A model generated the notes under the pieces. The model made no database searches. It was given only the letters and a program-made list of their open reading frames with translations, and was not told where the DNA came from. Of a stretch of 40,000 bases of DNA, positions 15,354 to 37,462 are shown piece by piece. Origin of the DNA: an uncultured Alphaproteobacteria bacterium (GTDB lineage: Bacteria; Pseudomonadota; Alphaproteobacteria; Rhizobiales; Rhodomicrobiaceae); NCBI GenBank assembly GCA_963798805.1, contig CAWCVC010000004.1:1-40000 (forward strand). The letters are read 5' to 3'. The stretch's first letter is position 1. Each line of letters starts with the position of its first letter. The translations under genes and the position numbers were made by a program.

Positions 15354-15716
15354 GCAACAGTGCCCTCGCAGGTTCTTCTGGGAGGAAGGAACCGCAGCAG
15401 GAGTGGTATCGCGCACTTGCCAAAAGCACCTACCAGAGGACACGTGTCTAGCGACTCATAGCCGAGCGCAAGCCGTATCAAGTTCTACAGTTTTTGTACG
15501 AACAAATTCGCTCAATGCACCAAAACTGCGCCCGCTCTGCCACAGCCGCAAAACGCATAATTGGCCGTGGACGATTGGGCCAGACACCCATTTTCTCGTA
15601 AGCTGCGGATTAGACATCGTGCTAGCGTCCCGCAAAGTCGAGCTTAGCAGCGCTCTCCCTCATAGATTCAGCAGTCTTTGGGCCACCAAAGGCGACAGTT
15701 TTTGGAGAGGTACCGC

Positions 15717-16673
15717 ATGAGTAGCGCAGTTACTGAGGCGGAGAACGATAAGCTCGCTAATGCATTGCTGGTTCCCTGCACAAGCAGGAAATCGGTGCGT
15801 CCTGCACCCGAAGCGTGCGCAGTTTCATTGCCAAAGACTTGTCAACAGGGTGTTGAAACTGCTTGGTTGAGTCGCCTTAGCACCTTACCGGTTCGGCTAC
15901 CTGCGGGAGCGCTTTACGCGGGTCGAGGTTTTCACTTAGCCCGCCAAACTGCCAAAGCGTCTGGCGCCGCCCTCTACGCGGTGTCTGCCGGCTTAGGTCT
16001 GGTTGCAGCTGAACGGATCGTCCCTGCCTACGGCCTTACCATAGATGGACGCAGTCCTGAGAGCTTAACTGGCCGGGTCAGCGGCCTGTTTGATGCAACG
16101 GCTTGGTGGCGGGCTATTAGTTCAGGTCCATTTGCAACACAGTTGAGCGAACTGTTTGGCGGGGAAGTTGGGACACCGGTACTCGTAGCCCTTACCCGAC
16201 CATACGCACGAATGTTAGCTCCGGCGCTCGATGCCATACCAGATGTAGCCGTTGCTTATCTCAGAATTGTTGGCGTCAAGCTCGACGTGCTTCTGCCGCA
16301 GCGCCTGTCATCGCAATTGTTGCCCTACGATGAGCGCCTCGAGACAATTCTGCCAGGAACACGCGCCGACTTTCCCCAACGGGCTATCGCGCATTTTGTC
16401 AAGGAGGTGCTGCGTGCCCACCCAGACGCCGACGCGGCCGAGCACCGCCACTGGGTCGAGATGACGCTCGCTGGACGAAGTGCGCCCCAGCGCCGGCAAC
16501 GCCTGCGGCTTTCCGATAACGAGATTGTGCGGCTCATCGAGCGGCACCTGCCGGAGACAAGTGCGATTGGCCGTCTCCTGCGTATCATTCGGGATGAGGA
16601 GGGCGTCGCGTGTGAGCAGACACGTTTTACGAGGTTGTATCGCGCCACGATCGAACGGAGGGCCGCAGCATGA
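15717..16673 (+). CDS. First gene of the dpd modification operon; DpdC-like candidate (YaaA/DUF328- or DUF6884-like pattern)
   Basis: 318 aa, with RBS GGAGAGG upstream of ATG 15717. LLVPCTSRK...LPAGALYAGRGFHLARQ...LYAVSAGLGLVAAERIVPAYGLTI resembles the xxCxxxK...A..lY.g..f...ilSA.yGLv.p...i.pYd.t pattern. The stop overlaps the next start (ATGA). The assignment rests on position and motif only. Confidence 0.45.
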   Translation: MSSAVTEAENDKLANALLVPCTSRKSVRPAPEACAVSLPKTCQQGVETAWLSRLSTLPVRLPAGALYAGRGFHLARQTAKASGAALYAVSAGLGLVAAERIVPAYGLTIDGRSPESLTGRVSGLFDATAWWRAISSGPFATQLSELFGGEVGTPVLVALTRPYARMLAPALDAIPDVAVAYLRIVGVKLDVLLPQRLSSQLLPYDERLETILPGTRADFPQRAIAHFVKEVLRAHPDADAAEHRHWVEMTLAGRSAPQRRQRLRLSDNEIVRLIERHLPETSAIGRLLRIIRDEEGVACEQTRFTRLYRATIERRAAA

Positions 16674-17812
16674 CCCGCCGAAAGCCTGGCGATGACCCGA
16701 CGCTCGCAGTCCGCGCACTACGGACCCACCAAGCCGACAATGTGGATGTCTACGCCTTCTTCATCCCCGGCGCTGATCTCCTCCGCATTGCCGAGATCAG
16801 CCGCGTCCATCGAGATGCCGAAGGAGCATTGCATGGGTTTCAGCGCAAAGAAATCCGCAATCACGTGCAGGCGATTGTCGAATTCCTCGACCAAGGCCCG
16901 GTGCTCTTCCCGAACGCTATCATTCTTGCAATCTCACCTCGCGCAACCTTTACCTGCAGCCGCGGGAGTAAGCCTGAGGGCGACGTGAGGGCCTCGGAGG
17001 CTGGGACACTGCGCGTCCCGATTCCTCGAGATGGGTCGAAAGCTGCATGGATCGTCGATGGGCAACAGCGTTCGATTGCGCTGGCTCAGGTGCGCAACAA
17101 GAGCTTCCCCGTTCCGGTTGTCGCCTTCGTGTCCGAGGATCTCTCGGTCCACCGCGAACAGTTCATTCTTGTCAACAAGGCCCGCCCACTCCCGCCGCGC
17201 CTTATCAACGAACTCCTCCCAGAGGTCCAAGCGGATCTCCCACGCGACCTGGCGCCAAGGAAGATACCGAGCGAACTCGTCAACCTGCTCAACACGGCGC
17301 TGGACTCGCCATTTCGTGGGCTGATCCGGCGTCCCTCCGATGACAACTCAGACGCCATTGTCATCGACAGTGCGCTAATCAAGGTAATCCGCAGCAGCAT
17401 GAACAGTCCGCTTGGTGCACTTGCGCCCTACAAGGCGTCGCCATCGCGCCCTGCCGACCATGCGGCGATGTACCGCGTGCTCGTCGCATTTTGGGGTGCC
17501 GTGCGCGAAGCCTTTCCAAACGCCTGGGGGCGTCCGCCTACCGAAAGCCGGCTAATGCATTCGGCGGGAATCGAAGCCATGGGCTTTCTGATGGACCGCA
17601 TCATGTCGCGCGCCGCCGGCAACAGCGACCTGCGACGACACGCGATAGAAGCCCTCGCGCGAATCGCGCCGCACTGCCATTGGACGAGTGGACGTTGGCC
17701 CGACCTCGAGCGAGATTGGAACGATATTCAAAATGTCAGCCGGGATATCCGGCTGCTCTCCGACCAGTTGGCGCGCCTCGATCATGCGCATGCCTTCGCA
17801 AAGGTGGCCTGA
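16670..17812 (+). CDS. dpdB: DGQHR-domain (DndB/ParB-like) protein, DpdB family
   Basis: 380 aa. Motifs: AWIVDGQQRSIALAQV (DGQHR-type motif, here DGQQR), QFILVNKARPLP and SRLMHSAGIEAMG. It lies immediately upstream of dpdA with a 1-nt stop/start overlap (TGATG). Confidence 0.8.
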   Translation: MTRRKPGDDPTLAVRALRTHQADNVDVYAFFIPGADLLRIAEISRVHRDAEGALHGFQRKEIRNHVQAIVEFLDQGPVLFPNAIILAISPRATFTCSRGSKPEGDVRASEAGTLRVPIPRDGSKAAWIVDGQQRSIALAQVRNKSFPVPVVAFVSEDLSVHREQFILVNKARPLPPRLINELLPEVQADLPRDLAPRKIPSELVNLLNTALDSPFRGLIRRPSDDNSDAIVIDSALIKVIRSSMNSPLGALAPYKASPSRPADHAAMYRVLVAFWGAVREAFPNAWGRPPTESRLMHSAGIEAMGFLMDRIMSRAAGNSDLRRHAIEALARIAPHCHWTSGRWPDLERDWNDIQNVSRDIRLLSDQLARLDHAHAFAKVA

Positions 17813-19101
17813 TGAAGTTTGTGTTCGCCGACAGTCTCGACTTCGTCGACCCTTGCTACGACTTCGTGGCTGATCGAAATGGCGCGCGGCGTGCTGTTCA
17901 TCGAGATGACCAGTTCCCACACGAGTTTCTCGATGAGGCCCCCTATGACGGTATCCTAGTTTCTCGCGGGATTGTGGGGGACGCCCTTATCCCAGGGAAG
18001 TATACGGAAGCACAACTGATGCGCTTTCGTCGGGAAGGCGCTCGGCGTTTCTTGCGCTATTCCGAGGAACGCTTTCCAGGCAGCATGATGATGGGGGATT
18101 GCGGAGCGTTCACGTATCGGAACATGCCTGAACCTCCATACCGGGCGGAGGATACCGTTGAGTTCTATGCCGATGGGGGCTTCAGCCACGGTTGTTCACC
18201 AGACCATCTGATTTTCGATTTCGATGACGCTGACCAAGAGCGCTCCACGACCGATATACCGAAGGAGACACTGAAACGCTTCGAGATCACGCTTCAAAAT
18301 GCGACAGAATTTTTCCAGGCCGCAAAACGGCTCGGGCAGCGGTTCACTCCTATGGGGGTCATCCAGGGGTGGTCGGCATCCAGCATGGCCTCTGCGGCAG
18401 CGGATCTCGCCCGCATAGGTTACGACTATCTGGCGGTCGGCGGAACGGTTCCGCTCAAGATTGAACAACTCCGCCGGGCGTTGGCTGCGATACGCGAGGC
18501 ACTACCATCGAACGTTTGCTTGCACGTGCTTGGGTTTGGAAAGATCGAGAACCTTGCCGACCTGGAGCAGTACGGCGTTGGGAGTTTTGACACGACGTCA
18601 CCGCTTGTGCGTGCCTTCAAAGACGCTCGCAAGAACTACTGGATGCGGAGCCCTGAGGGTGACCTATCCTACTACACCGCGATCCGCATTCCGCAAGCCA
18701 TCGAGAACAACCGTCTGAAGCATAAGGCGCTCGAAGGGCGGCTCAACCAGGAAGAAATGAAGCTTCTAGAGGACGCCGCTCTCGGCGGCGTACGGCGGTT
18801 GGCACGAGGCGAAGCTGATCTCGACGAGGCGCTTGACGCGGTTATGGCCTATTGGAAGCTACTCAACTGGGAGGATGAAGCCTCTCCGTCTCGCCGCGCC
18901 GAAATCCTGGAACGGCAGCGGCGCTCCTACGCCCGCACGCTCGCCGACCGTCCGTGGGAGGCATGCGACTGCCGCGTATGCCGGGAGGGCGGCATCGAGG
19001 CCCTGATCTTCCGAAGCTCTAACCGAAACAAGCGACGCGGTATGCATAACCTCCATGTCTTCCATCGCCACCTGCGTGATTTCCGGGCGGAGGTCGCATG
19101 A
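17812..19101 (+). CDS. dpdA: DpdA, DNA-guanine transglycosylase (TGT superfamily, TgtA5-like)
   Basis: 429 aa. MKFVFADSLDFVDPCYDF, GDCGAF and a TGT-type Zn site CDCRVC...H (WEACDCRVCREGGIEALIFRSSNRNKRRGMHNLHVF). The gene is flanked by DGQHR genes and followed by queE, queD and queC. Confidence 0.85.
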   Translation: MKFVFADSLDFVDPCYDFVADRNGARRAVHRDDQFPHEFLDEAPYDGILVSRGIVGDALIPGKYTEAQLMRFRREGARRFLRYSEERFPGSMMMGDCGAFTYRNMPEPPYRAEDTVEFYADGGFSHGCSPDHLIFDFDDADQERSTTDIPKETLKRFEITLQNATEFFQAAKRLGQRFTPMGVIQGWSASSMASAAADLARIGYDYLAVGGTVPLKIEQLRRALAAIREALPSNVCLHVLGFGKIENLADLEQYGVGSFDTTSPLVRAFKDARKNYWMRSPEGDLSYYTAIRIPQAIENNRLKHKALEGRLNQEEMKLLEDAALGGVRRLARGEADLDEALDAVMAYWKLLNWEDEASPSRRAEILERQRRSYARTLADRPWEACDCRVCREGGIEALIFRSSNRNKRRGMHNLHVFHRHLRDFRAEVA

Positions 19102-20198
19102 GTCCGACCCGCCTACTTCACTATGACGTAATTGTTCCGCAGCAGAGCGAACGACTGCCGGTCTTCACCTTCGCGGCGAGGGCGACCGATGTCGCGCGCT
19201 TCGCGCGGATTGAGCGGGCTGGCCGCGATGAGGGTGGCATACTGAAGGGCTTCCAGCGCCCGCAAATCGCCGGACATATCCGCGAGATCAGGGACTACCT
19301 CGAAAAGCCGACCGCAATCCTTCCGAATCCCATCGTTGTCGCTTTCACCGGCGCCGCTGTACTTGAGCCGCTGCTGCCGCTCCACGGTGGCAACGGCGGC
19401 AGGTTTGGCAGGCTCACCATCGACGTGGGTGGCGGCCCGCCGGGCTGGATTGTCGATGGCCAGCAGCGTTTCACTGCGCTCAGCGAACTGCGTGGATGCG
19501 CCTTCGAGGTTCTTGTTTCGGGCTTTATTTGTGACAGCCTAGAGGAACTTCAGAAGCAGTTCATTCTGATCAACAACACCCGCCCGCTACCCAAGGCGCT
19601 CGTTTATGAGCTTCTGCCGCAGGTTAGCGACCTGCCACAGCGCTTGTCGAATCGTAGCCAGGCTGCATTGATGACTGAAGCACTCAACTTCCGGCCCGGC
19701 TCATCGCTACGGGGCCTCATCCGACAGCAAACGAACCCGAAAGGGATCATCCGAGACACGGTTCTTCAGCGCGTGCTTATGAACTCCCTAAGCGATGGCG
19801 CACTCCGCCTCCACGCAGACGACAACCGTTTGCTACTCGAGCGTGGGGTTAACCTCATCAGCGAGTTCTTCCACGCCGTAAAACACGTCTTCGAGGAGGA
19901 CTGGGAAGGGAAGACGCCGAAAACATCACGGCTAGTGCACGGCACAGGCATCATCGCGATGGGCTATGTTATGGAAGCGCTGCACATCATGACTGGTGCC
20001 GAGGAACGCGATGCTTTCGCCCGGGGTCTTCGGCTCTTGAAGGGACGAACCGCCTGGAGTTCCGGCGAGTGGGTGTTCGGCGACGAGCGCCGACGCTGGA
20101 ACGGCCTGCAGAACGTACCGTCCGATATCCGGCAGCTATCACTATACCTCGTCGGAGAACTCAAGCGGTCGCTGCCAAAAACTGCCGAGGCAGCGTGA
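19098..20198 (+). CDS. Second DGQHR-domain protein (DpdB paralogue)
   Basis: 366 aa and collinear with the 16670..17812 product. Shared blocks: GWIVDGQQRFTALSEL, QFILINNTRPLP, SRLVHGTGIIAMG, WNGLQNVPSDIRQL. ATGA overlap with the dpdA stop. Confidence 0.8.
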   Translation: MSPTRLLHYDVIVPQQSERLPVFTFAARATDVARFARIERAGRDEGGILKGFQRPQIAGHIREIRDYLEKPTAILPNPIVVAFTGAAVLEPLLPLHGGNGGRFGRLTIDVGGGPPGWIVDGQQRFTALSELRGCAFEVLVSGFICDSLEELQKQFILINNTRPLPKALVYELLPQVSDLPQRLSNRSQAALMTEALNFRPGSSLRGLIRQQTNPKGIIRDTVLQRVLMNSLSDGALRLHADDNRLLLERGVNLISEFFHAVKHVFEEDWEGKTPKTSRLVHGTGIIAMGYVMEALHIMTGAEERDAFARGLRLLKGRTAWSSGEWVFGDERRRWNGLQNVPSDIRQLSLYLVGELKRSLPKTAEAA

Positions 20199-20202
20199 TA
20201 TC

Positions 20203-20838
20203 ATGGCATACTCTGTCAAAGAGATCTTTTACACATTACAGGGTGAGGGCCAGAATGCCGGCCGTCCGGCCGTTTTCTGCCGGTTCGCCGGCTGCAATCT
20301 CTGGTCTGGGCGCGAAACTGACCGCGCGAAGGCTGTTTGCACCTTTTGCGATACTGACTTCGTTGGTGTTAATGGTGAAGGCGGTGGGCGCTTCGGTACT
20401 CCTGGTGAACTTGCCGGCGCCATTGCCGTGTGCTGGCCGGTAACAAGAGATAAGCGCCGCTTTGTCGTGCTCACCGGAGGTGAGCCGTTGCTTCAGGTGG
20501 ACAGCCCGCTTATTGCGGCATTGCACGCCGAAGCGTTCGAGATTGCTATCGAAACGAACGGCACCATCGAGCCGCCACCGGGCATCGATTGGGTATGCGT
20601 CAGCCCCAAGTCTTCAGCACCCCTTGCGCTGAAATGCGGTAACGAACTCAAGTTCGTGTTTCCGCAGGCTGACACTGAGCCCGAGCACTTCGAGGGGTTA
20701 GAGTTCGATCATTTTATGCTCCAGCCCATGGACGGTCCGGCACGCGAGGTGAACACTGCAGCGGCGGTTGCCTACTGTCTTGCCCATCCTCGCTGGCGGC
20801 TTAGTCTTCAAACTCATAAACTGCTTGGAATACGATGA
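20203..20838 (+). CDS. queE: 7-carboxy-7-deazaguanine synthase QueE (radical SAM)
   Basis: EIFYTLQGEGQNAGRPAVFCRFAGCNLWSGRETDRAKAVCTFCDTDF (CX14CX2C-type cluster motif), TGGEPLLQ, LSLQTHK. Confidence 0.9.
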   Translation: MAYSVKEIFYTLQGEGQNAGRPAVFCRFAGCNLWSGRETDRAKAVCTFCDTDFVGVNGEGGGRFGTPGELAGAIAVCWPVTRDKRRFVVLTGGEPLLQVDSPLIAALHAEAFEIAIETNGTIEPPPGIDWVCVSPKSSAPLALKCGNELKFVFPQADTEPEHFEGLEFDHFMLQPMDGPAREVNTAAAVAYCLAHPRWRLSLQTHKLLGIR

Positions 20839-21188
20839 AACTTACTCAGGCATTTTCGTTCGAGGCCGCGCATCGCCTGCCGAACGTACCCGCAATCCAT
20901 CGCTGCCATCGGATGCACGGTCACTCTTATCGGGTGGAGCTTAGGATCGAGGGGCCGGTAAACCCAGAGACCGGGTTCGTCCTCGACTTCTTCGACATTG
21001 AGGCAGCCGTTGGTCCGTTACTGGAGCAACTGGACCACCACTGCCTCAACGAGGTTGATGGACTTGAGAACCCGACCGCCGAGAACATAGCGGTATGGAT
21101 TTGGACCCAAATTAAGCCAATTCTGCCGGAAACGGCGGCAGTCGTAGTTTACGAAACTCCCAATTGTTGGGCTGAATACGAAGGCTGA
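20835..21188 (+). CDS. queD: 6-carboxy-5,6,7,8-tetrahydropterin synthase QueD
   Basis: 117 aa. [24 protein letters not shown]...[13 protein letters not shown] overlap with the queE stop. Confidence 0.9.
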
Positions 21189-21205
21189 AGTTGAGGGCGC
21201 AGAGC

Positions 21206-21910
21206 ATGAACGGCAAGAATGCGATGGTTCTTTTTTCAGGCGGTCAGGATTCGACAACCTGCTTAGCATGGGCACTCGACCGGTTTGACCACGTGGAGAC
21301 CATCGGATTTGATTACAGGCAGCGCCACCGCGTCGAACTTGATATGAGACCGTCCGTCCTCGACGGTCTAAGACGCAAGTTTCCAATCTGGGCAAGCAAA
21401 CTCGGCGAGGACCACCTGATTGACATGGCGGTGCTCAGCCAAGTGAGCGAAACCTCGCTTACACGTGGTGGCGAGATCGCGATGCAGGCGAATGGGCTGC
21501 CGAACACCTTCGTACCAGGGCGCAACCTGCTGTTCCTAGTCTTTGCGGGCGCGATTGCCTATCGACGCGGGGCCAAACACCTCGTTACCGGCGTGTGTGA
21601 AACAGATTACTCTGGCTACCCTGACTGTCGCGATGACACAATGAAGGCAATGCAACTCGCCCTCAATCTAGGCATGGAGACGCGCTTCACCGTTCACACA
21701 CCGCTGATGTGGATCGATAAAGCAGAGACTTGGCAGCTTGCTCGAGACCTCGGCGGTGACACTCTTGTCAATCTCATCCGCGAGGCGACTCACACCTGTT
21801 ACAATGGTGACCGAACTCACTGTCATGAATGGGGATTTGGTTGCGGGGCATGCCCGGCGTGTGAACTGCGCGCTCAGGGATGGGAACGCTTCCGAACGTC
21901 GATAAGTTGA
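21206..21910 (+). CDS. queC: 7-cyano-7-deazaguanine (preQ0) synthase QueC
   Basis: PP-loop [12 protein letters not shown] and C-terminal Zn cluster [25 protein letters not shown] 21206 with GAGGG 8 nt upstream is preferred over the TTG at 21191. Confidence 0.9.
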
Positions 21911-21938: not shown

Positions 21939-24096
21939 CTAGCTCTCTCCGTCGCGCAAGTGGGCTTCGATGGCGCGCAAGATGCTCGAGAACCCGCGGC
22001 CCTGGGCGTAGAGCAAAGGCCGATTGGCTCGATGGTCTCGGATAAAGTCGGTTGCTGCGTGCTTGGCGGACTGCCAAGTCAGCACGAAAATGTCAGCATT
22101 CTCGGCAAGGGCTCGCAACCTTGCGCTTCCGACCTGGTCGGCGTTGCATTCAACGACCGCTGACGGCGCGATCTCCTCAATCGCCGCCTTAGCTTGTCTG
22201 CTCGACGTTTCAGTAAGTGTGTAGATAGCGATTCGCTTGCTAGCGAGCCGATCTGAATAGTGATCGCTGGGCGTCACGCTGGCGGGCAGGCCAAAGCTTG
22301 CGAACTCCCAGCCGAGTTCAACGCTCAAGCGGGATAAGGCACTGCGCTGTAGGCTGCTTAGCCTGCCATAGATTGGCGCCACCTTGGCCAGAGCAGCATG
22401 AAGAAAAGTTTCGCGTACGTCTGGAGACGACGCCCCAAAGCTAAGCAGGATTTCGATGATCTCGAGCAGCCAGTAGATCATCTCAACGCCGAAGCCTCGG
22501 CCGGCAAGCTCTTCGACATCCGAGATCAGGTCGCGATAGCTTTTCTCGTCCAATCCGGAGGCGAGCATTGCGTAGATTAGAAGTTGACTGGATTCATAAA
22601 TCCCGCGTCCTCGCGCCGAACTGAGGGCAAGCAAAGTCAGCAAATGCGAGTAAACTGGGACCACCGCGCTCCTTGGGAAAAGCGGGTCGCGTCGGAGCCA
22701 AGCCGTTATGAACGGAAGCGCATGCATCGTGCGCTCCGCCGCAAGCTCGAGACTGTTGCGCTCTGTCCAATGCGGCGACGAACCGCTGCACGACCACTGG
22801 GTCATCGAGTGCTTCACCGACTGGCCACTCGTCCATACCCTGGCGTGCGATATCTAGCGCATTGGAAAACGCAGGATCGCCGGCTTGCTCCAACCATTCC
22901 AACCAGTCGCGGGGCACACGCCCAGCCGGCAGTTCCTGCTGCAGTGCTCGCAGCAGCGTGCGAAAAGGCTCTGCCTCTCGGAGCCGACCGAAGTCGGTGG
23001 CATCCAGCTTCTCAAGGTTCGCGATCGCGCTGGCGACCGAGTCGAGACTTGACGCGGTGTCGAACTCCGTCAGAGCGTCGCGCGCTTCATCGATGGGGTT
23101 CGGTTGTACTTCGCGGATGCGGTCAACGGCCTCGAAATTAGAAGGCGCATCCACGACCTTGGTGGCGAGCCATCCAATCTGATCGTCACGGGTTGAAAGG
23201 GCATCGGTGAGATCGCGACGGCTCGGCGCAACCCAGGCTTCAAGTGCAAGGATCCGCCAGCCCCCCTGCATAAGCGTGACCGGTGCGGGCATGCCGAGCA
23301 TCGGGTGGGCAAGCGGTCTGACATGCTCTTCATAAGCTGCCCGCGTCGCATTCGCGTCACCCGAATCGAAGGCTGCTGCCAGGTGACCGCGATAAAGAGC
23401 CTCGAACAGGAGTGCGACAATCGCTGGCGGCTTACGAGCCTGGCAGAGGCTCGCAAATCCAGGCAGGTTGAGGATCGTCGGCCACTCATCGAACGCCGCG
23501 AGCAGTTGAACGTTGAGGAATTTGAGGTTGAGTGCGTCGAGCCGAAGTTCGGAGCGAAGCCGCTTCAGTAGGATCATCGCAGGCTCGCGCGCGCCGACGT
23601 TCAGATAATCTTGAAATTCAGCGAGCATCCAACTAGTCGGCTCTGGCGCGCGGCGCTGCAAAGTCGGCGCACGAGCAAGCGTACCGCGCAAGCACTCCAG
23701 GGCACGGAGTGCGGCGACCGTCCGCTTGGCTTCACTAGGCAGCCGCAAGACGGTTGCGGTGACAGGCCCAGCCTCTCGCACCAGGTCTGCAATTGGATCT
23801 TCTGCTGGTAAATTCACGGGCCGCCCGTCAAAGGAGGTGATCGTCGGTCCGGCAAATGCGACGAGTACTGGCGCGAGCCGTCGCCATTGGGCCGCAGTTG
23901 GGGCGGCCACATAGACATTAACCTCCCCCGTGTCTCGGACGGATGGGATCAGGGCGCCTGGAAAACCCGCGTCGACAACGGTCGCCAAGAGCGCCCGGCA
24001 CAGATCGGTGGCATCATGCGGAAGTCGATCGTAAGCGGCGGCGCCATGCAACCGGTCGCGAACGGCGATCGAGAGCTCTGGATCGGCTGCTATCAT
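21939..24096 (-). pseudogene. dpdD: DpdD-like protein (last gene of the - strand operon); one frameshift
   Basis: ORF 22594..24114 (N-terminal part) and ORF 21939..22817 (C-terminal part) overlap by 224 nt in different frames. Sense appears to switch near 22745-22760: ...FVAALDRAQQS then LELAAERTMHALPFITAWL. The C-terminus IAIYTLTE...ADIFVLTWQSAKHAATDFI...PLLYAQGRGFSSILRAI is DUF2325-like. ATG 24096 is preferred because GGAGGAG lies 8 nt upstream and it forms an ATGA overlap with the dpdK stop. The name is assigned by elimination and position. Confidence 0.55.
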
Positions 24097-24620
24097 CTCA
24101 GCAACTCCTCCCATTGCAACTCAAGCTGAATGCTTTGCTCTGCGATCGCGGCAGGATCAGTCCGAAGGACCAGATGCTCTCCGTTTACGGAAATGCCGTT
24201 CAAGGTCAGGTTCATGGAGCCGCTAAGGAAATAATCGGCACCAAGCAGGCCTTTGGCATGGAAGCTCTTTTCGATCGTCCATTTGAGGAGATCACCATGG
24301 CGCGCCTTAAGCGCCTTCAACCGAGCGACGAAGTAGTCGTTGTGACCATCCTCGCGAATAATGAGTCGAATGGCAGCGCCTCGAATAAGCAGTGCACGGA
24401 GGACGTGTGACAGGCGAATGGAAGCGGCCGGCCAATCCGGCTCCAGCGCCGCAAACTGGCGCGCCGAGTTGTCGAGGATCTCAATGTCCGAGATCCAGGC
24501 GAAGAACAGCCACAATTTGGGGCTAGGGCAGATCAACTCGGCTGCCAATAGGGTCTGGAGGAGATCGCGGACAGCCCGTGACTGCGCCGGTCCGTGGAGG
24601 TCGCGAGAGGGCGAAGCCAT
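24093..24620 (-). CDS. dpdK: PLD/HKD-family nuclease-like protein, DpdK-like
   Basis: 175 aa from ATG 24620, which overlaps the upstream stop (TGATG). HKD-type motif FHAKGLLGADYFLSGSMNLTLNG. The longer listed ORF (to 24833) would overlap dpdJ by more than 200 nt. Confidence 0.75.
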   Translation of the reverse strand: MASPSRDLHGPAQSRAVRDLLQTLLAAELICPSPKLWLFFAWISDIEILDNSARQFAALEPDWPAASIRLSHVLRALLIRGAAIRLIIREDGHNDYFVARLKALKARHGDLLKWTIEKSFHAKGLLGADYFLSGSMNLTLNGISVNGEHLVLRTDPAAIAEQSIQLELQWEELLR

Positions 24621-27600
24621 CAGACCTGCTCCCTTAAAGCAAGCGTCGCGAGCATATTCCCCTCGGCACGCTCCATCCGCTCGACCGCTGGAAAGAACTG
24701 AAGGAAACCAACATCGACTGGAGTAGCTGCCAGCCTCACTAATATATGGCGAAGGCCGGCTGCCGCGCTGGCCGTAGCACGCAAGCGGCAAACACCATGC
24801 GCTTCGAAGGCCGTCTGAAGCTGCATTTCCCAATCTGGATCCTCGAGATCAACCGTCGTGATTGAACCGGTGAGCAGCAAATGCCCTACAAGCCCAGGAT
24901 CGGTGGTTCGGGCTTGCCGATAAGGATGGTAGGCGTGAAGGACCTTCTGCCGAAGCTCGGCCTCTCGGGGCCAGAGCAATGTCATAAGAGCAGCATTGAT
25001 CGTCACATGATCAATGGCCGCCGCAGGGACTGTCGCCGACAAGAAACTCCGGACCGCAGGGGCGATCAGTCGATCCTTGCTGCAGATGAAGGCGAACTCA
25101 CGAAGGCCGATCGACAGCCCGAACTCGGCCTCGAGTGCGTCCCAGCGCTCCTGAAGCATGCGAAGCAACTGATCGAGTTCAGGTCCTGAGCCCGAGCGGA
25201 GCAGGCGCGTGTTGAGGGAGACGGTGAAGGCGTGACTGAGGTCGATCGAGCCTCTGGATGCGAGGATGGGCGATAGCTCATGCCAGTGGATCGCGCGCTC
25301 GGCATGTGAACTGGTCGAGCGAAGCTTGGCAAGGAGGCCGGCGATCTTGGTGTCAGTCTGTGCGAGGCTCAACACTTCGCGGAGGCTGCCATCGACCAGT
25401 TCGAGGTCCGTTGGAGCCAGCGCTGCCTCCAACGCGCTGAAGAATAGCCGCGGCTCGGCAGCGAAGCTTTCGGCAAATGCCTGTAGGACGCCAGCACCGC
25501 CAACGGTCAATTCGGTGATCCAGACGCGCGCAATGTCGGCCTGGGGCACCTGGTGAATGTCGACCAGTAGGGTGTCGACGGTCGCATGGCGAGGGGCAGC
25601 TACGGCGCAGGCCTGAAGCATCGCTTCCCCGAGCGTTTCGAGGACGGTTCGCCGCAGCCACGCACCGAAAGCCTCCTGATCTGGATTTGAGAGCTGCGCC
25701 GCAGTTGCGCGCAGCGCGTCGCGAACGACGGCCCGACCGAGTTGGACTGCAAGCGACTGTTGCAAACGACTTGAGCCTTGCGGACCCGACGCTCGCGCCT
25801 GGAGAGGGGGCGCATTGTCTGTATCGTCAGCCTCGTCTCCGTTCGCCTCCTCATCATCTGGGAGAGGCGGCGGCAATGCGCCGAAAATCTCGTTCATCGC
25901 GCTCTGGAGCGTTGCATGGAGATGCGGCTCCGCAAGTAGATCGGCCGCTACGGCGCCAATGGATCGGCTGCTCGCTACGGCGTCGGACAGGAGCGCCGAG
26001 ACAAGAATCTGGAAGAGCCAGTCGCGCTGAAAGCTGTTCAAATCTTCAGGCAGCGAGGTGTCCGTCAGAAACCGGTCACGCGCATGAGCCAGCTTGCTGC
26101 TCGCCAAGAGCCGCGGCGGCAGCCCACTCTCGATGAGACGGCCCGCGGCCGGAAGCTCAAGATCAATATAGAAACCGTCGAACTCCCAGCTCGAAGCCGA
26201 GCGCCGCACGCCGACCGTCATCGCTCCTGAAATGAAGCGTGACTGGAAAGTCGTCCTGAAGCGTGCGGATATTCGCATTCACGGTCGGAGCGAAGCGCCT
26301 GACGCTGACGCTCGCCCGAAACCGGTGCAGGTGGAAGCCGACCGCCTTAACATACGTGTGCCATCGCGTCCGGGGCGGCACGCGTACAATCAGAGGATCT
26401 CCGTTCGGCTCGATATCAGTCCGCCAACTCAGGTGCGCATTGCTGCTGGGGAGTGCGTCGGTGCGCGCAGCGCGCTGAAGGCGCACTTGCCATGGCCTGA
26501 AGACGAGCAGCGGATCTTCCTCTGCGTCATCATTGCAGCGCGCTAGGAAGCTGCCGACAAACTCATTCTCCTCAGCATAATCGCTGATGCGTAGCTGTTG
26601 GATGGGCATTGACGGGTCAACCGGCACCCAGTGCGACAATCCTCCTCGTTCAAAGGCGAAACGCCGTGTCACACGCCCAGGCGCCAGCTGATTGAGAGCT
26701 TGCAATATCGGCACCATCTCAACCCGCTCCTCGTAGTGAACAGTGGCAGGCGGAATGATGACCCGGACTTCAGGAAGGTTCAGGTCGCTAAAGAGGGTCC
26801 GCGGCACAAAGTCAGGTAGCGGGTGGTAATCGATCTGGAGATCAAATTCGCGCGCGCCATCTGGGAAAGCGAGTTGCCAATGTCGGAATAGACGGCGGAC
26901 GAGGGTCGGGACTGCTTCCAAGAGGAGCGAGCGGGGCGCTTCCCATAAAAGCATGTCGACCGTTTGTGTATCGAGCGCGAGTGCACCTTCAAGATAGGTT
27001 CGCAAGTTGCATAGCGCTGCCTCGTCACCCTGGATAACTTGGGTCAGCAGTTTTTTCGCGGCCTCAATGACCAACTTTTCCGGTGCCGACGGATTTGGCA
27101 CTGGCCGGCTCAGAAAATTCCAGAACCAGCTCTTCTCGAATCCAGCAGTCCGGGCAGCTAGCCAATCGATCAATGCAAAGACAGCCTGGATCTTCAGGAC
27201 ATAGGGGTTATGAATAGGGAGGTGCTGCGGTTCGAGCGTTGGATCGAACAGGTGCTCGTAGGCCTGATAGAAGCTGCGGTCACGTCCATAATCGGAAAGC
27301 ACGGTAAGCGTGATGGGGCGCATCCGCCGATCCCGTCCCGCACGGCCCTTGCGTTGCAGGAAAGACGCCATTCCGCGCGGCGCCTTGTGTTGGATGACGG
27401 CACCAACCTCAGGATCGTTAAATCCGACCTCGAGGGCGGCGGTCGCGACGACGATGTTGGCGCTCTGGTTGACCCCCGCGTCCTGCGATGTGGTACGACC
27501 AACCACTAGACGGCGATTGAGCGGGTGGCCAATTTCTTCGCATAGTTTCCAGCGTTGACCTTCGAGGTCGCGTAGAGCAGCGTCAGGGCCTGCACTTCTC

Positions 27601-29189
27601 AAGTTGGCAAGCGGATCGCGCTGCTGATCGGCTTTGCCGAAGATAGTATAAGCTTCAGCATCCTTGAGATCATCATAGAGACGGTTGGTGACGTCGAGAT
27701 CGTCGGTGAAAAGGAAAGCCCGACTGCCGAAAGCGCCCATCGAGACTGGCTGGCCAGGTGGATCGAGGGTGCGTGGCAACAGCATCGATGATTGAATTGT
27801 CGTCGAGAGCAGCGAAGCGCGCGATGTAGGGTCGCCGCGAAGCAGAATTTGATATTCGGCTCCTTCTTCCTCATACTCGTCCGCTGCGGGTGTGATCTCG
27901 ACGACTTGGTCCGGGGCCGCACCGGTCAAGTCGGCGAAGAAGCGTGTCGCGTCGCCAAGCGTGGCCGAAAGACCAGCCCAATGGATCGGGACACCGAGAA
28001 GATGACGCCAGCGGCGGAGCGTTAGCGCCACCTGTGCACCGGCTGTGCCTTCGTAGGTGTGGACCTCGTCGAGCAGTGCAAAAATGGGCTTTCTTTTCGA
28101 AGCGGTTCCAACGCCGAAGAGCCCTCGCATCCATTGATCGGAAAGACGTTGGTTCAGGATTTCGGTTGTCGTAAATAGGATGTCTGGTGGCTCCTCCTGT
28201 ATTCGTTGCCGCGTGAGCAGCAAATGGTCATCGGAGATGACCTCGCCACATCCAGGACGAATGCAAGTGAGCCGCTCGCGCGCAGTTTCTAGGTCTGTGG
28301 CGCGCCACGCAAGGTCGGCGTCGCATGTTGGACAGCGGAGCCACGGGCATACAAAATCCGGGCCTCGCGAACGCCATTCACGCCGGACAAGCTCGTCTCG
28401 GTTCGCCGATCTCGGCGTTCCCTTGAACAGCGCACCTATACGGAGCGCTCTCCGGCCGTGTTCACGGAGTGGCGCATCAATCCCACGAGCCATGCGGTAC
28501 GCTTCGGCGAACTGGTCTTTCAGCAATTCAATGCGCGGGTAGATCGCAATCGCTTTGACGAAATGGGTGGCCGAAATGGCTTCACCAATCCTTATCATCG
28601 CGGGGAGGTAGAACCCAATCGTCTTGCCACTGCCGGTACCGGCGGTCACTATCGTGCCACCGTCGGGGCCGGGCTCTGCAAGTCGGAGCAGTGCGCGCTC
28701 CTGAAAGGCTGCAAACTTCATCCCCGGGCGAGAAGTGAGCGCGTCCCAAAGCGCCTTACGCACTGCGGTCGGTACAATGATTGCACTTGCGTCGGTGACT
28801 ATGTCGGCGGGGATACGATCGCGGCGGGGGAAGCGGCGCGGTCGGCGGTCGACCCTGAAATCGGCGACCAGACGGGGTGCGCTCTGCCAAGGCTTGTTGG
28901 AGAACAACTGACGCGAGGCGACCAGCAACCGCATCATCTCTGCAAAGCGTGATCGAATCCGGACGCCGCCGTCCACCGACCTGATTTCGAAGATCAGCTT
29001 TGCTTCGATCAGTTCTTCGACAAGATCGTAGCCTCGGCCGTCGCCGCTGATTTGATCGGCCAGGCCGAATGTTTCATCCTCGCTGAGCGAGCCCTCCGTG
29101 TAGCCCCATTCCAGCGACCGCATCTCAGTCGCCTCGATGCGATCGAGCAACTGGAGGGCCTTCGATGTAGGTTCCATCGGCATGGTCAA
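24620..29189 (-). pseudogene. dpdJ: Large DEAD/DEAH (DEVH) helicase, DpdJ-like; one frameshift
   Basis: ORF 26163..29189 has TAGTGSGKT (Walker A), LLDEVHTYEG, LSATLG, QRKGRAGR and an inserted Cys-rich ribbon (CPWLRCPTCD...CIRPGCG). ORF 24620..26278 overlaps it by 116 nt. Sense joins near 26180-26195: ...RAALGFELG then (E)FDGFYIDLELPAAG. Combined length is about 1520 aa. Confidence 0.7.
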
Positions 29190-29896
29190 ATTCGGATTCG
29201 GAAGGCGCCAAGGAGATTGCGCTGAGTGAGCCAGTTATGCACCTCGTCAGTTAAGCTGTCGAGCGGAGCCCCTTCGGCGGCGCAAACTTTCAGGAACCTG
29301 ATCACCGAGTCCGGGACGCCGTCGGCTGTCAATTCCTCCCACGCGGATCGATGGGCGGCGACGAACTCCTTCAGCCGCAAAACGCTCGCTTGTGGATCCG
29401 CCGGGATCGTCGAGGCGAGTGTTGCGATCTCCGACCTGTACTGGCGCATCCGCGCGATGATTGGCTTGAACTGTGGAATGGCAGCTAAGGCCTTCAATAT
29501 CTCTTCCGAATATCCATCGCTGTGGGCACTAGTGTACGCGCGCCATGATTCCAGCATCGCCTTTTCAGCAGCGTCATGAATGGCGATAAGTCGCGCGGTG
29601 AACTTATGTTTGAGATCGAAAGGCGGATCAGTAAGGACATGCGGGTTGGCCTGAACTGCGGCCCGAAGAGTGCGCGCACGCTCAGCGAGCGTTGCACCCT
29701 CGATAGGCACAAACGCAACAGGCACGCCAGCGCTCCGAAGTCTTCCAAGCAGATCGCGCGTGCGCTCGAACTGAGTTGCGATTTTGCTGAACTGGGTTGC
29801 CCGAGTCTCGAAGAAGGCCGCTTCTTCGGCTGTACCCTTTAGTTGATTATATTGGGCGATTCTTGTGGAGAGTCCGGCCGCGCGCTCAAGCAGCAT
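29186..29896 (-). CDS. dpdI: DpdI-like small protein (assigned by position)
   Basis: 236 aa from ATG 29896, with GAGGAGG 6 nt upstream and an 11-nt overlap with the dpdH end. Predicted helical, no motif recognised. It sits between the P-loop protein and the DEVH helicase, as dpdI does. Confidence 0.5.
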   Translation of the reverse strand: MLLERAAGLSTRIAQYNQLKGTAEEAAFFETRATQFSKIATQFERTRDLLGRLRSAGVPVAFVPIEGATLAERARTLRAAVQANPHVLTDPPFDLKHKFTARLIAIHDAAEKAMLESWRAYTSAHSDGYSEEILKALAAIPQFKPIIARMRQYRSEIATLASTIPADPQASVLRLKEFVAAHRSAWEELTADGVPDSVIRFLKVCAAEGAPLDSLTDEVHNWLTQRNLLGAFRIRI

Positions 29897-32800
29897 GGGC
29901 GGCCTCCTCAATCTCCAACATCATAGCCCCTAAATCCGCCTCGATCCGCTCGAGGGCGCGGTCAATCCTTTCGATACTTGCGGCCGTTGCCGCGTGCTGA
30001 GCACCATGGTCGGCACTAAAAGCACTTAGATTTCGGTCGACGGCATCCAGGAATGTTGTTGCCAATTGCCTGAGTTCGTCGCCAGCGATAACCGCAGCCC
30101 GCCGTCCTCGGCCGAAGTGTGGCAATGCCGAGAGCGGATCCTCTACCTTGGAGATTGCCCGCGCAGCCGCGATCGCATCGTCAAACTGAACAGACTGGAA
30201 GCGTTCCAGAGCCTCGGCAAGCGGCCTCGACGTTCCACCGACTGCAATACCAGCCTGGTCTGCTGCCTCGTGTGCCTTTGACAGAGTGGTGATGATTGTC
30301 GCACGAGTCGCCCCCGCGCCGAACGCTTCTTCCAGGTCGGACAGCCACTGACGCCTAGCATTCCACTCAGCGACCGCCCCAGTCTCAAGCGCTGCCTGCA
30401 CCTCCTTGTAGAGTTTTGAAAGTGCCAGGAACTCCGAATGCCTTTCATCACCGGATGGCGTCAGCGTCAGCCGCCACTTCGCATGCCGAAACGCACGGAC
30501 GCCCGCGATGAAGCGGTCGGGGTTGAGCATCGCGCCTACGCGCCCGCCTTTCATGCTCGAAATTTGCGCGCGCGCAATCGCGCTGAGCTTGTCACGATAC
30601 TTCAGGAGCTTGTCATAAATGGCCTTGAGTTCGGGTGCACTCGCCTGACTTTCGAGCGGCCAAGCGCTGAAAGCGCCGTCGATCATTTCGGCAATTCGCG
30701 CTTCCGGCTTGATCTTGTTCCCAATTGCGGCGCCGATGTACAGCAACTGCAGGGCGGCCATGGACTGAGACCATTCGGGGGAGGGGCCGCACAGCGCTCG
30801 AAGCTGTCTCTCGACCTCCTTCGCCCAGGCATCTACGCAATCGAGAAAGGCCGTAAGCATGCGATCGCCCCCCTCGAAATCCCAGCGGAAGCCCGCTTTA
30901 CTCGCTCGGATCAGGCCTTGAAGCGCGGCACCGGTCCGAATTGGATCGGCATGTGGGCCGGGTATGCGGAGCTGAACCGGTAGATGGGTTTGGATTTGCG
31001 TTGTCTGACGATCAAAACTGACGCTGTTCGTCTGGAACGCTTTGCCCGTCTTGCCAACGAACGAACTACGCTCGAGCCCCAGCATGTCCCAATCGATCGC
31101 ATCCGCGACGGCGATGAAGGTCAAGTTCCGCAAAGTTGTCGCAACCGTTTGATCGAGACCGCTGCCCTTGATCCAAGCCTCGATCGCAACGTCTTCACGA
31201 CTAGCTGCCTTCGCTTTCGGCTGAGGAACTCGCTCGTCGGCAAGTTCTGTATTACCTTCCGCCGCAGTACCGACACCGGGTATCTCCGGGATCGAGAAAG
31301 TATCCCGCAATTCGGCCGGTAGATTCTCGATCTTGCCCGACCCGTCATAGAGCTCGAGCGCAGCAATCCACCGTTCCTCTGCCTGTGGATTGGCGCTCTT
31401 GAGCCGATTGCGAGCGGCGAGGTTGAGGGTGCGCGGCGGGTTGGGAGCGCGAGGGGCTTCAAGCTTCTCGAGAAGACGATAGGGCGGAAATTCCCCGGCC
31501 TGGATCGAGCTCGCATAGGTGTCGAGTACCTCGACCAGCACGCTGTTTTGAAGAATTCGCGGATTGAGGCCCTCCGGCATTGCAAGGTCCGCTCAACTCG
31601 CCGCATTCCAAAGCGCTGTCCGAGTGAAGGGGTAGAGGCCGTAACCATCGATGGCCCCGAACGTCTGATGACATCCGCTGTTGTGAGGGCAGCTTTTGCA
31701 CTTTGACGGCGCATGCTCCCCAGGTTCCGCTGTATCGCTCCACTGCTCGATCCGCTCGAGTCCCAACCGAGCGGCATTCAGGTAACGCGAGGCGAACGTG
31801 CTCAAGGAGGTGGCAGTCACGCGACTGCCGTCTGCCCGTCCCGCAGATCGGTCCATATCGATGATGTGGGTCGTCCGCATATAAGCGGTTTCGGCGACAC
31901 TCTCGAAGAAACCCGTGGTGACAGCTATCGCCGAGCGGATCTTGCATTGATCGTCGTCTCCATGTGCCGTAATCGCCTGGAGAAGTGCGCGGTCGATGCC
32001 CTGGAGGCGTGCAAACTCCTCAACCAGAAGAACCAACTCCTTGCGTTGACTCTTCAGATGCGCCCGTAACCGCGCCATCAGTTCCTCGACGCGGTCACCC
32101 GAGAAGCTCAATGTGCGCGCCACCGCCTTGTCGAGGTTGCGGTTGATGATCTGGACCGCAAGTGGTTGGGACACGCCCGGCTCAAGCTCGATGACGTGCA
32201 TCGCATCGCGGGCATGTTTCGATGCATGGACGAAATCAAAACCACCCAGCGGCAAGTCTTGCTCGACGAACTGGCGGCGTCTATCGGGCCGATCCTTGGC
32301 ATTGGAAGCCGCGAAGATATGGTCAACGATGTCGGCAATGATCGTGCCATCGCGCAGGAAATGCTCCTGCCGCATATGAGGATCTTGAAATAGGTGCGGC
32401 AGTTGCTTGACTAGCTCTGCCTCAAGCTCATCTGCTTCTTCGGGAACATACTCCTCACGGATCGCGAATGCGAGGTCATTGAGAAGCTGTTGTTTCTGCC
32501 CGTCGCGAGTAGCCGTACTCTCACCGGCACGATTGAGAATGTCGAGAAAGCCTTGTTGCTCGGAAGCCGGCAACTGATGGATGATCATCTTGACGATGGT
32601 GCGAAGGCTTGTCCCCGACTTCTTGACGACTAGCACCATACGCTTCTCGTCGGGCCTCATGTTGAGGCGCATCCAGTGGACAAGGTGTGACTTGCCAGAA
32701 CCCGTCGAGCCGAGGATCGCAGCGAGAACGTGCGGCCGATCCTCACGCAGAAAATCTTCGAGGAATACAGCTGGCGTCATCTGTTCGTAAGATGCCCCAC

Positions 32801-32951
32801 TGATCTCCTGGAAGGATTTCCCCATCGGGGCGCTGACCTGGAGCGCCCAGTCGCTGTGAACTGCCCGGAATAAACTATCAGGGATATGTTCAGCGAATGG
32901 ATTGATGACGCGGCGGGCTTCTTTCGGGTCCCAGCAGAGATATTTGCGCAT
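29886..32951 (-). pseudogene. dpdH: P-loop NTPase of about 1020 aa, DpdH-like; split by an in-frame TGA
   Basis: ORFs 31593..32951 (Walker A GSTGSGKSH; LVLLVEEF Walker-B-like) and 29886..31580 share one frame. They are separated by TGA 31593-31595 plus 4 codons: ...TALWNAAS * ADLA MPEGLNP... No obvious SD precedes ATG 31580. The alternative is two naturally separate genes. Confidence 0.55.
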
Positions 32952-33872
32952 TATACCGGAGCCTTTCTAACTATATGAGTTATGCGCTCAGTTCTCACCC
33001 CGAAGTCGAGTAGCAACGGGGGCGCATCGGCCCGGCTGATCATTTCGATCTGCTGGCGATCGGCGAGCCGCTGTAGCGCGATGCTGGTCGCAGGTGAAAG
33101 ACGGCGTTCACTCTGGTAAGGTGACGCCCCGTTCATTGCCTCGATTTCCTGCCGCGCCGACCCACCTTCGAGCACCGGGAAGATGCCCGCGAGTTTGCTC
33201 ATGAAGGCGTCGCCGGACAGTTCGGTGACCGAGGAGAATATTGTCGGGAGCGCTGAGGCAATGGCGCCGCAAGGATCCGGAACCGCGCGACGGGCGTCCT
33301 TACCGTCGTCCTGATCGTGCGTTCCGAGCAGGGTCGCAAATTCGAGGTAACGGGCCCAATAGAGAAAGTTTTGGTAGCGGTTGAGGTTGGTCAACTCGGT
33401 GCGGTCATACTCCTCGCCCAAGGTGGAACGCAGCAAGTTCTGCGGTGGGGTCGCAAAACCGATCGGCTCTAAGGGGCTAAGCGTCAGGAACCAAGCCAAA
33501 GCAAGCATGAAGCCTGCTTGCTGGCTCTCTGCTGCACGCGCTGGGTCGAAGAGAGTTCTGAGAAGGTGGGCGCGAAACCGCTCCTCATATGCCGTTTTTT
33601 CGGCCGCCACCCTCGCGTGCTTCGCCCGGGACCCTGAGCCTGTCGTCAATCTCTTCGATGAGCCCTAGCTTCTTCGCCTCGGCCAACGTGTTGGTGAACA
33701 ATGTTGTCGCCGTGTCGCTATCCTCGTCGCTGCCCCCCCGGGAGCGGAGCGACGGCGGCGTAGACCAACCCTCCAGACGCTCCCGCACTACACCGTTTGG
33801 ATTGTCGACAAGCGACACATAAAGGCTGTAAAGGCGACTGGGAACAGCCTGCGCGGTGGTGATAATGCTCAT
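32951..33872 (-). pseudogene. dpdG: DpdG-like protein (assigned by position); one frameshift
   Basis: ORF 33585..33872 (MSIITTAQAVPSRLYSLYVSL...) and ORF 32951..33649 overlap in different frames. Removing one A from the A6 run (T6 at 33595-33600 on the + strand) gives a continuous ...PGEAREGGGRKTAYEERFRAHLL... of about 306 aa. ATGA overlap with the dpdF stop; TAATG overlap with the dpdH start. Confidence 0.55.
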
Positions 33873-36292: not shown

Positions 36293-37462
36293 TAGGTGTC
36301 GCCGGAGCGATCCAATAATCCGGCTCAGGACGAAGCTGCACAGCTGCTATGCTTTCGAAAGGACCATCGGTCCCGAATAGAGCGCGGAGGGTCTCGAGTG
36401 AGGTTTCAGTCAGTGTTGCTGAGAGAAGCAAGGTGCGCATTCGCTGATCGGGCCGTGCGGCGGCGATCAGTTCACGCCGAAGGCCACTCAGTTCCTGAAA
36501 CTCGGTGCGGAAGCCAGTTCCCCATTGGTCAACGAGATGCGCTTCGTCGATCACCAGCGCGCGAAGATGACCATGCTCCGCCGCAGTTCGTAGCGACGAC
36601 CGCAAGCGGCCGCAGGCGGCTTCAGGCGACGCAAAGCAAAGGCCAAGCGTTCCATCTGCGATGCGCTCGGCGATGACGGCATTCTGAACGTCATCGCCGC
36701 CCCGGAAAGCAAGCGGCCGCTCGAGTCCACAAACCCGAACGGCTTCCTGCTCGTGATTTATGCCGAGGGCGACCGTCGGAATAATAACGAGTGCGATGCC
36801 CCGTGCCTCCGGCTGCGCGCCCACAAAACCGACGCTTTGGACAAGCTGGAAGACCATGCTCTTGCCCTCTCCCGTCGGCAGCGCGATGACGAGGGTGCCA
36901 CCGGCGGGCGTGCACAGCGCTGCCCGAACCGCGGCTCGCTGTCCCGGGCTGCGATATGCTGTGCGGTTGATGGACTTGAGACAGGGATCGCCGGTTGTTC
37001 CAGGGCCAGTAAAATCTCGCAATACGTGCTCGGAAGTTGCATAGCCATCGACCCCCTCACTCGCTTGCCCCAACCACTCCGGCGACCACGGCTGGGCGGT
37101 GATCGAGAGGCTATCGCCTGAACGGTTTGCTCGCAGTCCCACCCGCTCCCAGTGGCTAAAAGCGGTCAGCCGAGGGTGACGAAGGCGAATCGTTGGAGAA
37201 ACGGCATAGGATCGCCGAGCATGCTCGTGCCTGAGCGCTTGCCTTAATAGGACGGCAAGGTCGAGCGGGCTCGCGCGCGATGGTTGTTCTGCAAGCGCGG
37301 CACGGAGTCGATCGATGGCAGGTGAACTCGCAGACCAAGCGTCTGCCGCTTCCGTGTCGCCCAGGAGCGCCCGCATCGCTTCGAACGCCCCATGCCCTTC
37401 AAGCTCAGTCATTGGAGCCCCGCTGAGGCCGCTGCCTTGTAACCACGAACGCGCCCATAGCT

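Follow-up and report, generated by a model that had tools for sequence, protein, structure and literature searches.

All of the biochemistry available for Dpd DNA modification comes from a Salmonella system that has a single DpdB. In Salmonella Montevideo, the TGT-like protein DpdA and the ParB-like, DGQQR-bearing protein DpdB are accompanied by DpdC, to which the literature gives the DUF6884 domain, and by the genes dpdD to dpdK. The Salmonella DpdB is a homodimer, and one copy is sufficient with DpdA in vitro. The need for ATPase activity in the DpdA-dependent insertion of 7-cyano-7-deazaguanine (preQ0) was shown for this single Salmonella DpdB alone (PMC10164549). Judged from an Enterobacter plasmid, the Salmonella-type layout is dpdC-dpdA-dpdB. 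The subject of the present analysis is a dpd island in an uncultured alphaproteobacterium of the Rhodomicrobiaceae (assembly GCA_963798805.1), contained in positions 1 to 40,000 of contig CAWCVC010000004.1; this whole stretch of 40,000 nucleotides is referred to as the window. The island has the same components as the Salmonella Montevideo system, with dpdC as a probable assignment; however, it adds a 35%-identical DpdB paralogue between dpdC and dpdA, it includes queE, queD and queC in the same operon, and its restriction genes are broken. The added upstream copy is called B1 and the copy downstream of dpdA is called B2. From comparisons with related loci, B1 and B2 represent two paralogue families of old origin, with a fixed position for each.

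The modification genes form a tightly packed operon of seven genes on the forward strand (15678–21910), of which queC is the final gene. The first gene, dpdC, occupies 15678..16673 (+) and was assigned from a DUF6884 match of 29.0 bits, just under the Pfam cutoff of 30, and from its homologous position in relatives, since almost every related locus has a homologous reading frame directly 5' of B1 or dpdA. The dpdC frame opens with a TTG codon at 15678 (331 aa), and an ATG at 15720 (317 aa) is the likelier start. For DpdC, 344 representative proteins match at E ≤ 1e-30, and the best 150 of these are mostly 300–330 aa in length. The B1 gene, dpdB1 (16670..17812, +), encodes a DGQHR/ParB-like protein of 380 aa with the motifs GFQR, DGQQR and QFILVN; it scores 463.2 bits against the NCBIfam DpdB model NF041060 and 205 bits against TIGR03187. 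It is followed by dpdA (17812..19101, +), which encodes a TGT-like DNA transglycosylase of 429 aa (NF041059, 526.5 bits, cutoff 200), and by the B2 gene, dpdB2 (19098..20198, +), which encodes the second DGQHR/ParB-like protein of 366 aa (NF041060, 375.6 bits). The stop codon of dpdC and the start codon of B1 overlap in the sequence ATGA at 16670–16673. At the next junction, the B1 stop and the dpdA start are joined as TGATG with base 17812 common to both, and at 19098–19101 the dpdA stop and the B2 start again form ATGA. Thus, the overlap with dpdA is 1 nt for B1 and 4 nt for B2, and both paralogues would be expressed together with dpdA. A scan of 15000–22200 for promoters and terminators gave matches that were no commoner than in shuffled sequence.

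The initial annotation of this region had described two full-length, diverged DpdB paralogues that flank dpdA with overlapping stop and start codons and that hold several sequence blocks in common. In each of these respects the description is accurate, including the coordinates and lengths. B1 and B2 align collinearly over approximately 350 residues (35% identity, E = 2e-57), a similarity well outside what chance would give, both extend from end to end of the 352-position NF041060 profile with scores that exceed its curated 300-bit cutoff, and the blocks WIVDGQQR, QFIL(V/I)N..RPLP and SRL(M/V)H..GI.AMG are present in both. The same annotation took the glutamine in place of histidine in the family-name motif to be a peculiarity, and in this it was mistaken. 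DGQQR is the canonical DpdB motif: it is conserved in the S. Montevideo DpdB itself (PMC10164549), it is present in the single Enterobacter DpdB, and it is invariant in the 25 B1-type and 31 B2-type sequences that were aligned. The Pfam DndB family (PF14072) also matches both proteins. DndB resembles B1 and B2 in this Pfam assignment, in its ParB-like fold and in having a DGQHR-type motif; however, it belongs to a different subfamily, since the Dnd-specific model TIGR04172, which has a cutoff of 450 bits, gives 62.0 bits for B1 and 28.2 for B2. Moreover, B1 and B2 read DGQQR at this motif and have dpdA and dpdC as partner genes rather than dndACDE, and no dnd genes were found in the window.

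Both copies are well conserved. Within each clade, 138 columns reach a conservation of at least 90%; 64 columns are invariant across the two clades (including GFQR, VDGQQR, QFxLxN, ELLP and SRLxH), and 18 columns are fixed differently between them. In comparison with the closest relative, Azospirillum melinis, the dN/dS ratios are 0.033 for B1, 0.040 for dpdA and 0.042 for B2, figures that are approximate since synonymous sites are near saturation. B1 and B2 are both under strong purifying selection, with a constraint equal to that on dpdA. As judged from the alignments, neither copy resembles a decaying or catalytically dead duplicate, and the predicted ParB-like NTPase motifs are kept in both. 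Among all of the loci that were fetched, the type of paralogue follows its position without exception: the upstream copy matched the B1-type profile best in 99 of 99 cases and the downstream copy matched the B2-type profile best in 107 of 107. In a neighbour-joining tree, B1 and B2 form separate clades whose internal branching is closely similar.

The initial annotation had set the two-copy arrangement apart from a minimal machinery with one DpdB. A survey of dpdA neighbourhoods in three collections, all of which lean toward relatives of the window, gave a different picture. Species-representative genomes scanned with the window DpdA yielded 27 loci, of which 21 have the order dpdC-B1-dpdA-B2, usually followed by queE, queD and queC. 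For metagenomes, a diverse DpdA alignment served as the query, and the best 80 from a total of at least 554 loci were considered, their DpdA identities extending down to 44%; B1-dpdA-B2 was found in all 52 loci that had enough flanking sequence. Among 17 DpdA-encoding plasmids, nine have the layout, and these nine are the closest to the window and all from Alphaproteobacteria. The layout also occurs in Methylophaga, in a deltaproteobacterial metagenome-assembled genome (MAG) and in a Vulcanimicrobiota MAG. The two-DpdB layout is therefore the usual, dominant form in every collection sampled, and the window operon is an ordinary example of it.

This form is also already annotated. Where the plasmids carry RefSeq annotation, both flanking genes are named 'DGQHR domain-containing protein DpdB'. 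Plasmids of this kind, with examples in Bradyrhizobium sp. 41S5, Sinorhizobium americanum CCGM7, Skermanella rosea, Caulobacter sp. S6 and Methylobacterium sp. XJLW, have the same gene order as the window (hypothetical protein, corresponding to dpdC, then DpdB-DpdA-DpdB-QueE-QueD-QueC) and the same paralogue types; their DpdA proteins are 50–75% identical to that of the window and most lack dpdD–K nearby. A genome-mining paper of 2025 (GATOR-GC) counted 801 extra dpdB copies. Since DGQQR is normal, the order recurs in related loci and extra copies have already been counted, the two-DpdB layout is not unusual. The initial annotation had named, as the outcome that would overturn its reading, that such arrangements be the common and already characterised form. 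Common they are, and characterised they are not: no experimental study of the RefSeq two-DpdB plasmid operons was found in the searchable literature, and no paper on the role of the second dpdB copy was found there either, with three key papers beyond reach. Modified DNA is reported to have been detected by Thiaville et al. (2016) in a set of bacteria that includes Kineococcus radiotolerans and Comamonas testosteroni. Two side observations concern gene number in these loci. In three metagenome loci a third DGQHR gene, of B2 type, lies divergently just upstream of dpdC on the minus strand (L089:2729-3805, L098:1270-2361, L101:2717-3937), and a locus from an Azonexus MAG has three tandem QueD-like reading frames after queC (L022:13111-14136).

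The relationship of the two paralogues to the DpdB that has been studied was approached through the single DpdB of the Enterobacter plasmid. This protein shares 99% identity with an E. coli cluster (P0241) and, over the aligned region, at least 92% with clusters that bear Klebsiella and Salmonella names (P0242, P0254). Its gene lies after dpdA, in the same position as B2, and the protein has the blocks PNPxxxAF, PGxxVDGQQRxxAL, NxTxPLPKxLxYEL and TNP--xGxIxD in common with B2. In BLAST comparisons it scores equally against B1 (217 bits) and B2 (216 bits). Relatives of the canonical DpdB at 53–62% identity were found in Methylophaga, the deltaproteobacterial MAG, the Vulcanimicrobiota MAG and a metagenome contig, and all four occupy the downstream place in a dpdC-DndB-dpdA-DndB set. 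In a neighbour-joining tree to which these sequences were added, an upstream superclade received a bootstrap value of 0.535 and a downstream superclade, in which B2 is joined by the canonical DpdB, received 0.43; a sister grouping of B1 and B2 had 0.5% support. The distance between B1 and B2 is 1.50, and the distances to the canonical type are 1.26 and 1.29. The Salmonella and E. coli DpdB proteins thus appear to group with the downstream type, with moderate support, and B2 is probably the evolutionary counterpart of the characterised DpdB. As a consequence of this grouping, the model system has probably lost B1. The history suggested by these comparisons is an old duplication after which the upstream copy was probably lost in the laboratory model.

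A loss of B1 can also be seen closer to the window. Of the 27 genome loci, 6 lack B1 and have an intact dpdA and B2, and dpdC is kept in five of the six. Those five, from Sphingomonas, Allosphingosinicella and a Rhodospirillales MAG (L014, L015, L017, L019 and L020), form one clade, and B1 has been lost again in this Sphingomonas-centred clade. One of its members, L015, still carries dpdJ, dpdK and dpdD. The sixth locus (L018) has neither dpdC nor B1; a joint loss of the two genes was considered and rejected since an insertion sequence (IS) element cuts off the 5' end of the operon at that point. The Enterobacter, Tolumonas and Marinobacterium loci likewise have dpdC-dpdA-dpdB alone. The reverse situation, with B1 retained and B2 lost, was never seen among the fetched loci, and no B1 lacking a dpdC directly upstream was found in the loci examined. 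From this distribution, the remaining genes of the module can do without B1. A separate observation is that an Acetobacter pasteurianus plasmid (L030) and the Methylorubrum extorquens AM1 megaplasmid (L034) have dpdC-dpdA with no DpdB-type gene within 5–6 kb.

B1 is linked to DpdC by more than adjacency. In two metagenome loci, dpdC and B1 are in a single reading frame, and a database search identified approximately 25 distinct clusters at 90% identity that are fusions of DUF6884 and DndB domains, with lengths of approximately 640–700 aa and identities to the query that range from 100% to 41%. Natural DpdC-B1 fusions of approximately 690 aa are located at L046:3068-5221, L058:661-2733 and L122:6001-8082. 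In a Candidatus Accumulibacter locus the order is [C-B1 fusion]-dpdA-B2-dpdD-dpdK-dpdJ. The separate placement of the fusion protein P0149, outside the main fusion clade, suggests a second, independent fusion event. Hence, in-frame fusion of B1 onto the DpdC C-terminus is found in at least one lineage, possibly two. Another candidate, P0407, was taken up as a second kind of fusion and rejected as a frameshifted gene call.

With respect to the two halves of the dpd system, B1 belongs to the modification module and not to the restriction module. The order C-B1-A-B2-queE/D/C is present with no dpdD–K nearby on plasmids of Bradyrhizobium, Sinorhizobium and Agrobacterium vitis and at a genome locus of Azospirillum melinis. 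The proposal that B1 is a restriction-side gene was rejected on this ground, since the operon with B1 is found on plasmids that lack dpdD–K.

Structure predictions were made for B2 and for a natural DpdC-B1 fusion. The AlphaFold2 model of B2 (pLDDT = 83) has an N-terminal half of mixed α/β structure and a helical C-terminal half. A Foldseek search with this model gave the N-domain of a ParB protein as the best match (5k5d_B, E = 3.7e-3, probability 0.94), but the TM-scores were only 0.26–0.35; SspE, PadC, Spo0J and ParB followed as weaker matches. Despite the low TM-scores, the predicted model fits the published description of DpdB, in which the same relationship to ParB and SspE and the nucleotide-dependent dimerisation of ParB are discussed (PMC10164549). 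According to that comparison, DpdB lacks the EHxxP nicking motif of SspE (PMC10164549). In the model of the fusion protein, the B1-type domain gave weak Foldseek matches to ParB and SspE (E = 0.07–0.2). A sequence search of the PDB with B1, B2 and DpdC gave no meaningful match, with a best E value of approximately 0.2.

Taken together, the sequence comparisons lead to a tentative reading, held with somewhat less than even confidence, in which B2 would be the ATPase partner of DpdA and B1 an accessory paralogue on the DpdC side. As proposed, B2 would be the ATPase that enables DpdA to swap guanine for preQ0 in DNA, and B1 would be an accessory NTPase that binds DNA in the service of DpdC, by which preQ0-DNA is turned into ADG-DNA. 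B1 would bring DpdC to DNA or hold it there, possibly in contact with B2 through the nucleotide-dependent dimerisation of N-domains that is typical of ParB-like proteins. By acting in this way, B1 would couple preQ0 insertion to conversion, and the laboratory system with its single DpdB would be a reduced form. The initial annotation had suggested a division of labour between the two copies, such as DNA loading by one and ATPase activity by the other. Since both copies are constrained and complete in their motifs, some division of labour is plausible, and the DpdC-B1 fusions are a tangible expression of it; the particular split into a loader and an ATPase finds no support, neither copy having lost its NTPase motifs. 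A bolder version of the reading is doubtful. It would have B1 as a dedicated loader of DpdC, with DpdA/B2 insertion and DpdC/B1 hydrolysis to ADG taking place in one coupled complex joined by dimerisation of the B1 and B2 N-domains. This two-DpdB complex would be the ancestral and commonest form, and the 'minimal machinery' of Salmonella would be secondarily reduced.

Several results weigh against placing B1 on the DpdC side. The Salmonella DpdC converts preQ0-DNA in vitro on its own (PMC10164549), and dpdC is retained in the absence of B1 in the Sphingomonas-centred clade, Enterobacter, Tolumonas and Marinobacterium. Fusions are rare, since the 150 top representatives of DpdC clusters (50% identity) include a single genuine one, and the fusion model, for which the domains are confident (pLDDT = 85), has a pTM of 0.48 and no defined packing between the domains. 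DpdC is also fused to DpdA on Scytonema and Paenibacillus plasmids, where proteins of approximately 700 aa have an N-terminal DUF6884 region of approximately 280–300 aa as identified by Pfam; a fusion may thus be just a sign of membership in a common complex. The plasmid DpdA proteins of approximately 700 aa are encoded at L035:4119-6263, L036:4158-6227 and L037:4077-6221, the last of which is a Nostoc DpdA of 715 aa that resembles the two Pfam-identified fusions in size. The loci with DpdC-DpdA fusions have no adjacent gene of B1 or B2 type; in Scytonema, an unrelated DGQHR gene lies on the other strand. In a mirror-tree analysis of the 24 taxa that have all four proteins at full length, the partial correlations of B1 were 0.54 with B2, 0.08 with DpdA and 0.04 with DpdC, a weak signal in which the B1-B2 component may simply reflect a common fold and rate. 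Finally, the bootstrap values of the deep nodes are only 0.43–0.54.

The initial annotation had also raised the idea of a heteromeric DpdB. In its obligate form, a B1:B2 heterodimeric clamp would have replaced the ancestral DpdB homodimer as the partner of DpdA, and this is unlikely. A heterodimer of paralogues would be structurally natural, since the S. Montevideo DpdB homodimer has been modelled as a ring around DNA that is closed by the NTPase domains, and B1 and B2 are strictly co-conserved and translationally coupled around dpdA. Their mutual distance exceeds those to the canonical type, as complementary divergence would give, and B2 is the top partial correlation of B1. However, paralogues of the same fold may correlate in rate trivially, and the full set of motifs in both copies gives no indication of complementary loss. 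The losses of B1 from the six genome loci with dpdA and B2 intact, including L015 with its dpdJ, dpdK and dpdD, and from Enterobacter, Tolumonas and Marinobacterium, together with the sufficiency of a single downstream-type Salmonella DpdB with DpdA in vitro, disfavour an obligate heteromer. So does the one-sidedness of the losses, since B1 kept with B2 lost was not encountered. The same dispensability of B1 in several lineages would suit a DndB-like regulator that determines how much modification there is and where, or represses the operon, and has no part in the chemistry. This proposal is drawn from the Pfam DndB match of both proteins and from DndB itself, a DGQHR protein that acts as a regulator of DNA phosphorothioation according to one report (PMC4507180) and that a review places outside the core pathway as a DNA-binding regulator (PMC5699537). 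It is improbable given the low TIGR04172 scores, the translational coupling of B1 within an enzyme operon, a constraint on B1 as strong as that on DpdA, the retention of NTPase motifs in B1 and its fusion to the enzyme DpdC in some lineages.

The position of dpdA between the two genes, with an overlap on either side, and the 18 differently fixed positions might instead indicate that B1 and B2 each pair with DpdA for different DNA substrates or contexts, such as distinct motifs or replicating as opposed to resting DNA. However, the partial correlation of B1 with DpdA is low, and the B1 fusions join it to DpdC rather than to DpdA, which leaves a substrate split with a small probability. Smaller still is the probability of plain redundancy, with B1 as a spare copy that has no distinct role. 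B1 has been lost more than once with the rest of the module kept, as a spare copy might be; however, the duplication is old (35% identity), the arrangement spans several phyla, type and position are fixed, and the dN/dS ratio and the 138 highly conserved columns of B1 are those of a constrained gene. The accessory role on the DpdC side, with B2 as the partner of DpdA, is therefore the reading that is retained here, in its tentative form.

With these findings in mind, the reliance of Dpd biochemistry on a single-DpdB system gains importance. Most of the sampled dpd operons, a sample in which relatives of the window are favoured, carry a second, separately conserved DpdB, and public annotation uses one name for both. 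What is new here is the recognition of B1 and B2 as old, position-fixed families under strong purifying selection, the absence of B1 from the model system, its further loss in the Sphingomonas-centred clade and its occasional fusion to DpdC; the findings on B1 suggest that the model system is a reduced form. B1, an old and constrained protein that the model organism lacks and that is in some lineages fused to DpdC, may serve as a handle on the role of the ParB-like ATPase in this modification. If it is treated as an orthologous group of its own, a separate name and a separate hidden Markov model would be justified.

The remaining genes of the operon encode the supply of preQ0. The queE gene (20203..20838, +) encodes a 7-carboxy-7-deazaguanine synthase of 211 aa (TIGR04508, 344 bits, cutoff 240), queD (20835..21188, +) a 6-carboxytetrahydropterin synthase of 117 aa (TIGR03367, 101 bits, cutoff 89; Pfam PTPS, 130 bits), and queC (21191..21910, +) a 7-cyano-7-deazaguanine (preQ0) synthase of 239 aa (TIGR00364, 208 bits, cutoff 150). 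On the opposite strand, the restriction half of the island extends over 21939..39938 (−), and all eight of its families were detected in the order dpdD-K-J-I-H-G-F-E when read along the plus strand. Five of these genes (dpdD, dpdJ, dpdH, dpdF and dpdE) are disrupted, in that each NCBIfam model matches two reading frames that cover adjacent parts of the profile. The split genes dpdD (21939-22817 and 22594-24114, −), dpdJ (24620-26278 and 26163-29189, −) and dpdE (37463-38980 and 38943-39938, −) consist of overlapping reading frames in different frames, and dpdH has an in-frame stop at 31593–31595. The dpdF gene is interrupted by an insertion of approximately 1.1 kb (35176–36276), probably an IS element, with a reading frame for a DDE_3 superfamily transposase (35602–36279, +). 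In relatives, dpdD, dpdJ, dpdE and dpdF are single intact reading frames, and frames of 955–1156 aa match the N-terminal half of dpdH. The modification operon is free of lesions, which at a uniform lesion rate would occur with a chance of approximately 18%; the contrast between intact modification and damaged restriction genes is thus suggestive only.

Scans of the whole window for Rfam families and tRNA genes found nothing, and accordingly neither a preQ1 riboswitch nor a tRNA integration site is among the features detected. Gene decay continues directly upstream of dpdC, where a Fic-domain gene is split over overlapping reading frames (13782–14636 and 14047–15048), with an isolated HHH fragment of RecD2 type after it (15045–15461). 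Further upstream are two divergent tyrosine integrases (10841–12121, −; 12379–13539, +) and a fragment of a TraI-like relaxase (3298–4242), and the GC content falls to 45% at 8–9 kb. From the integrases, the relaxase fragment, the split Fic gene and the RecD2 fragment, the island lies in decaying DNA of an integrative, mobile kind.

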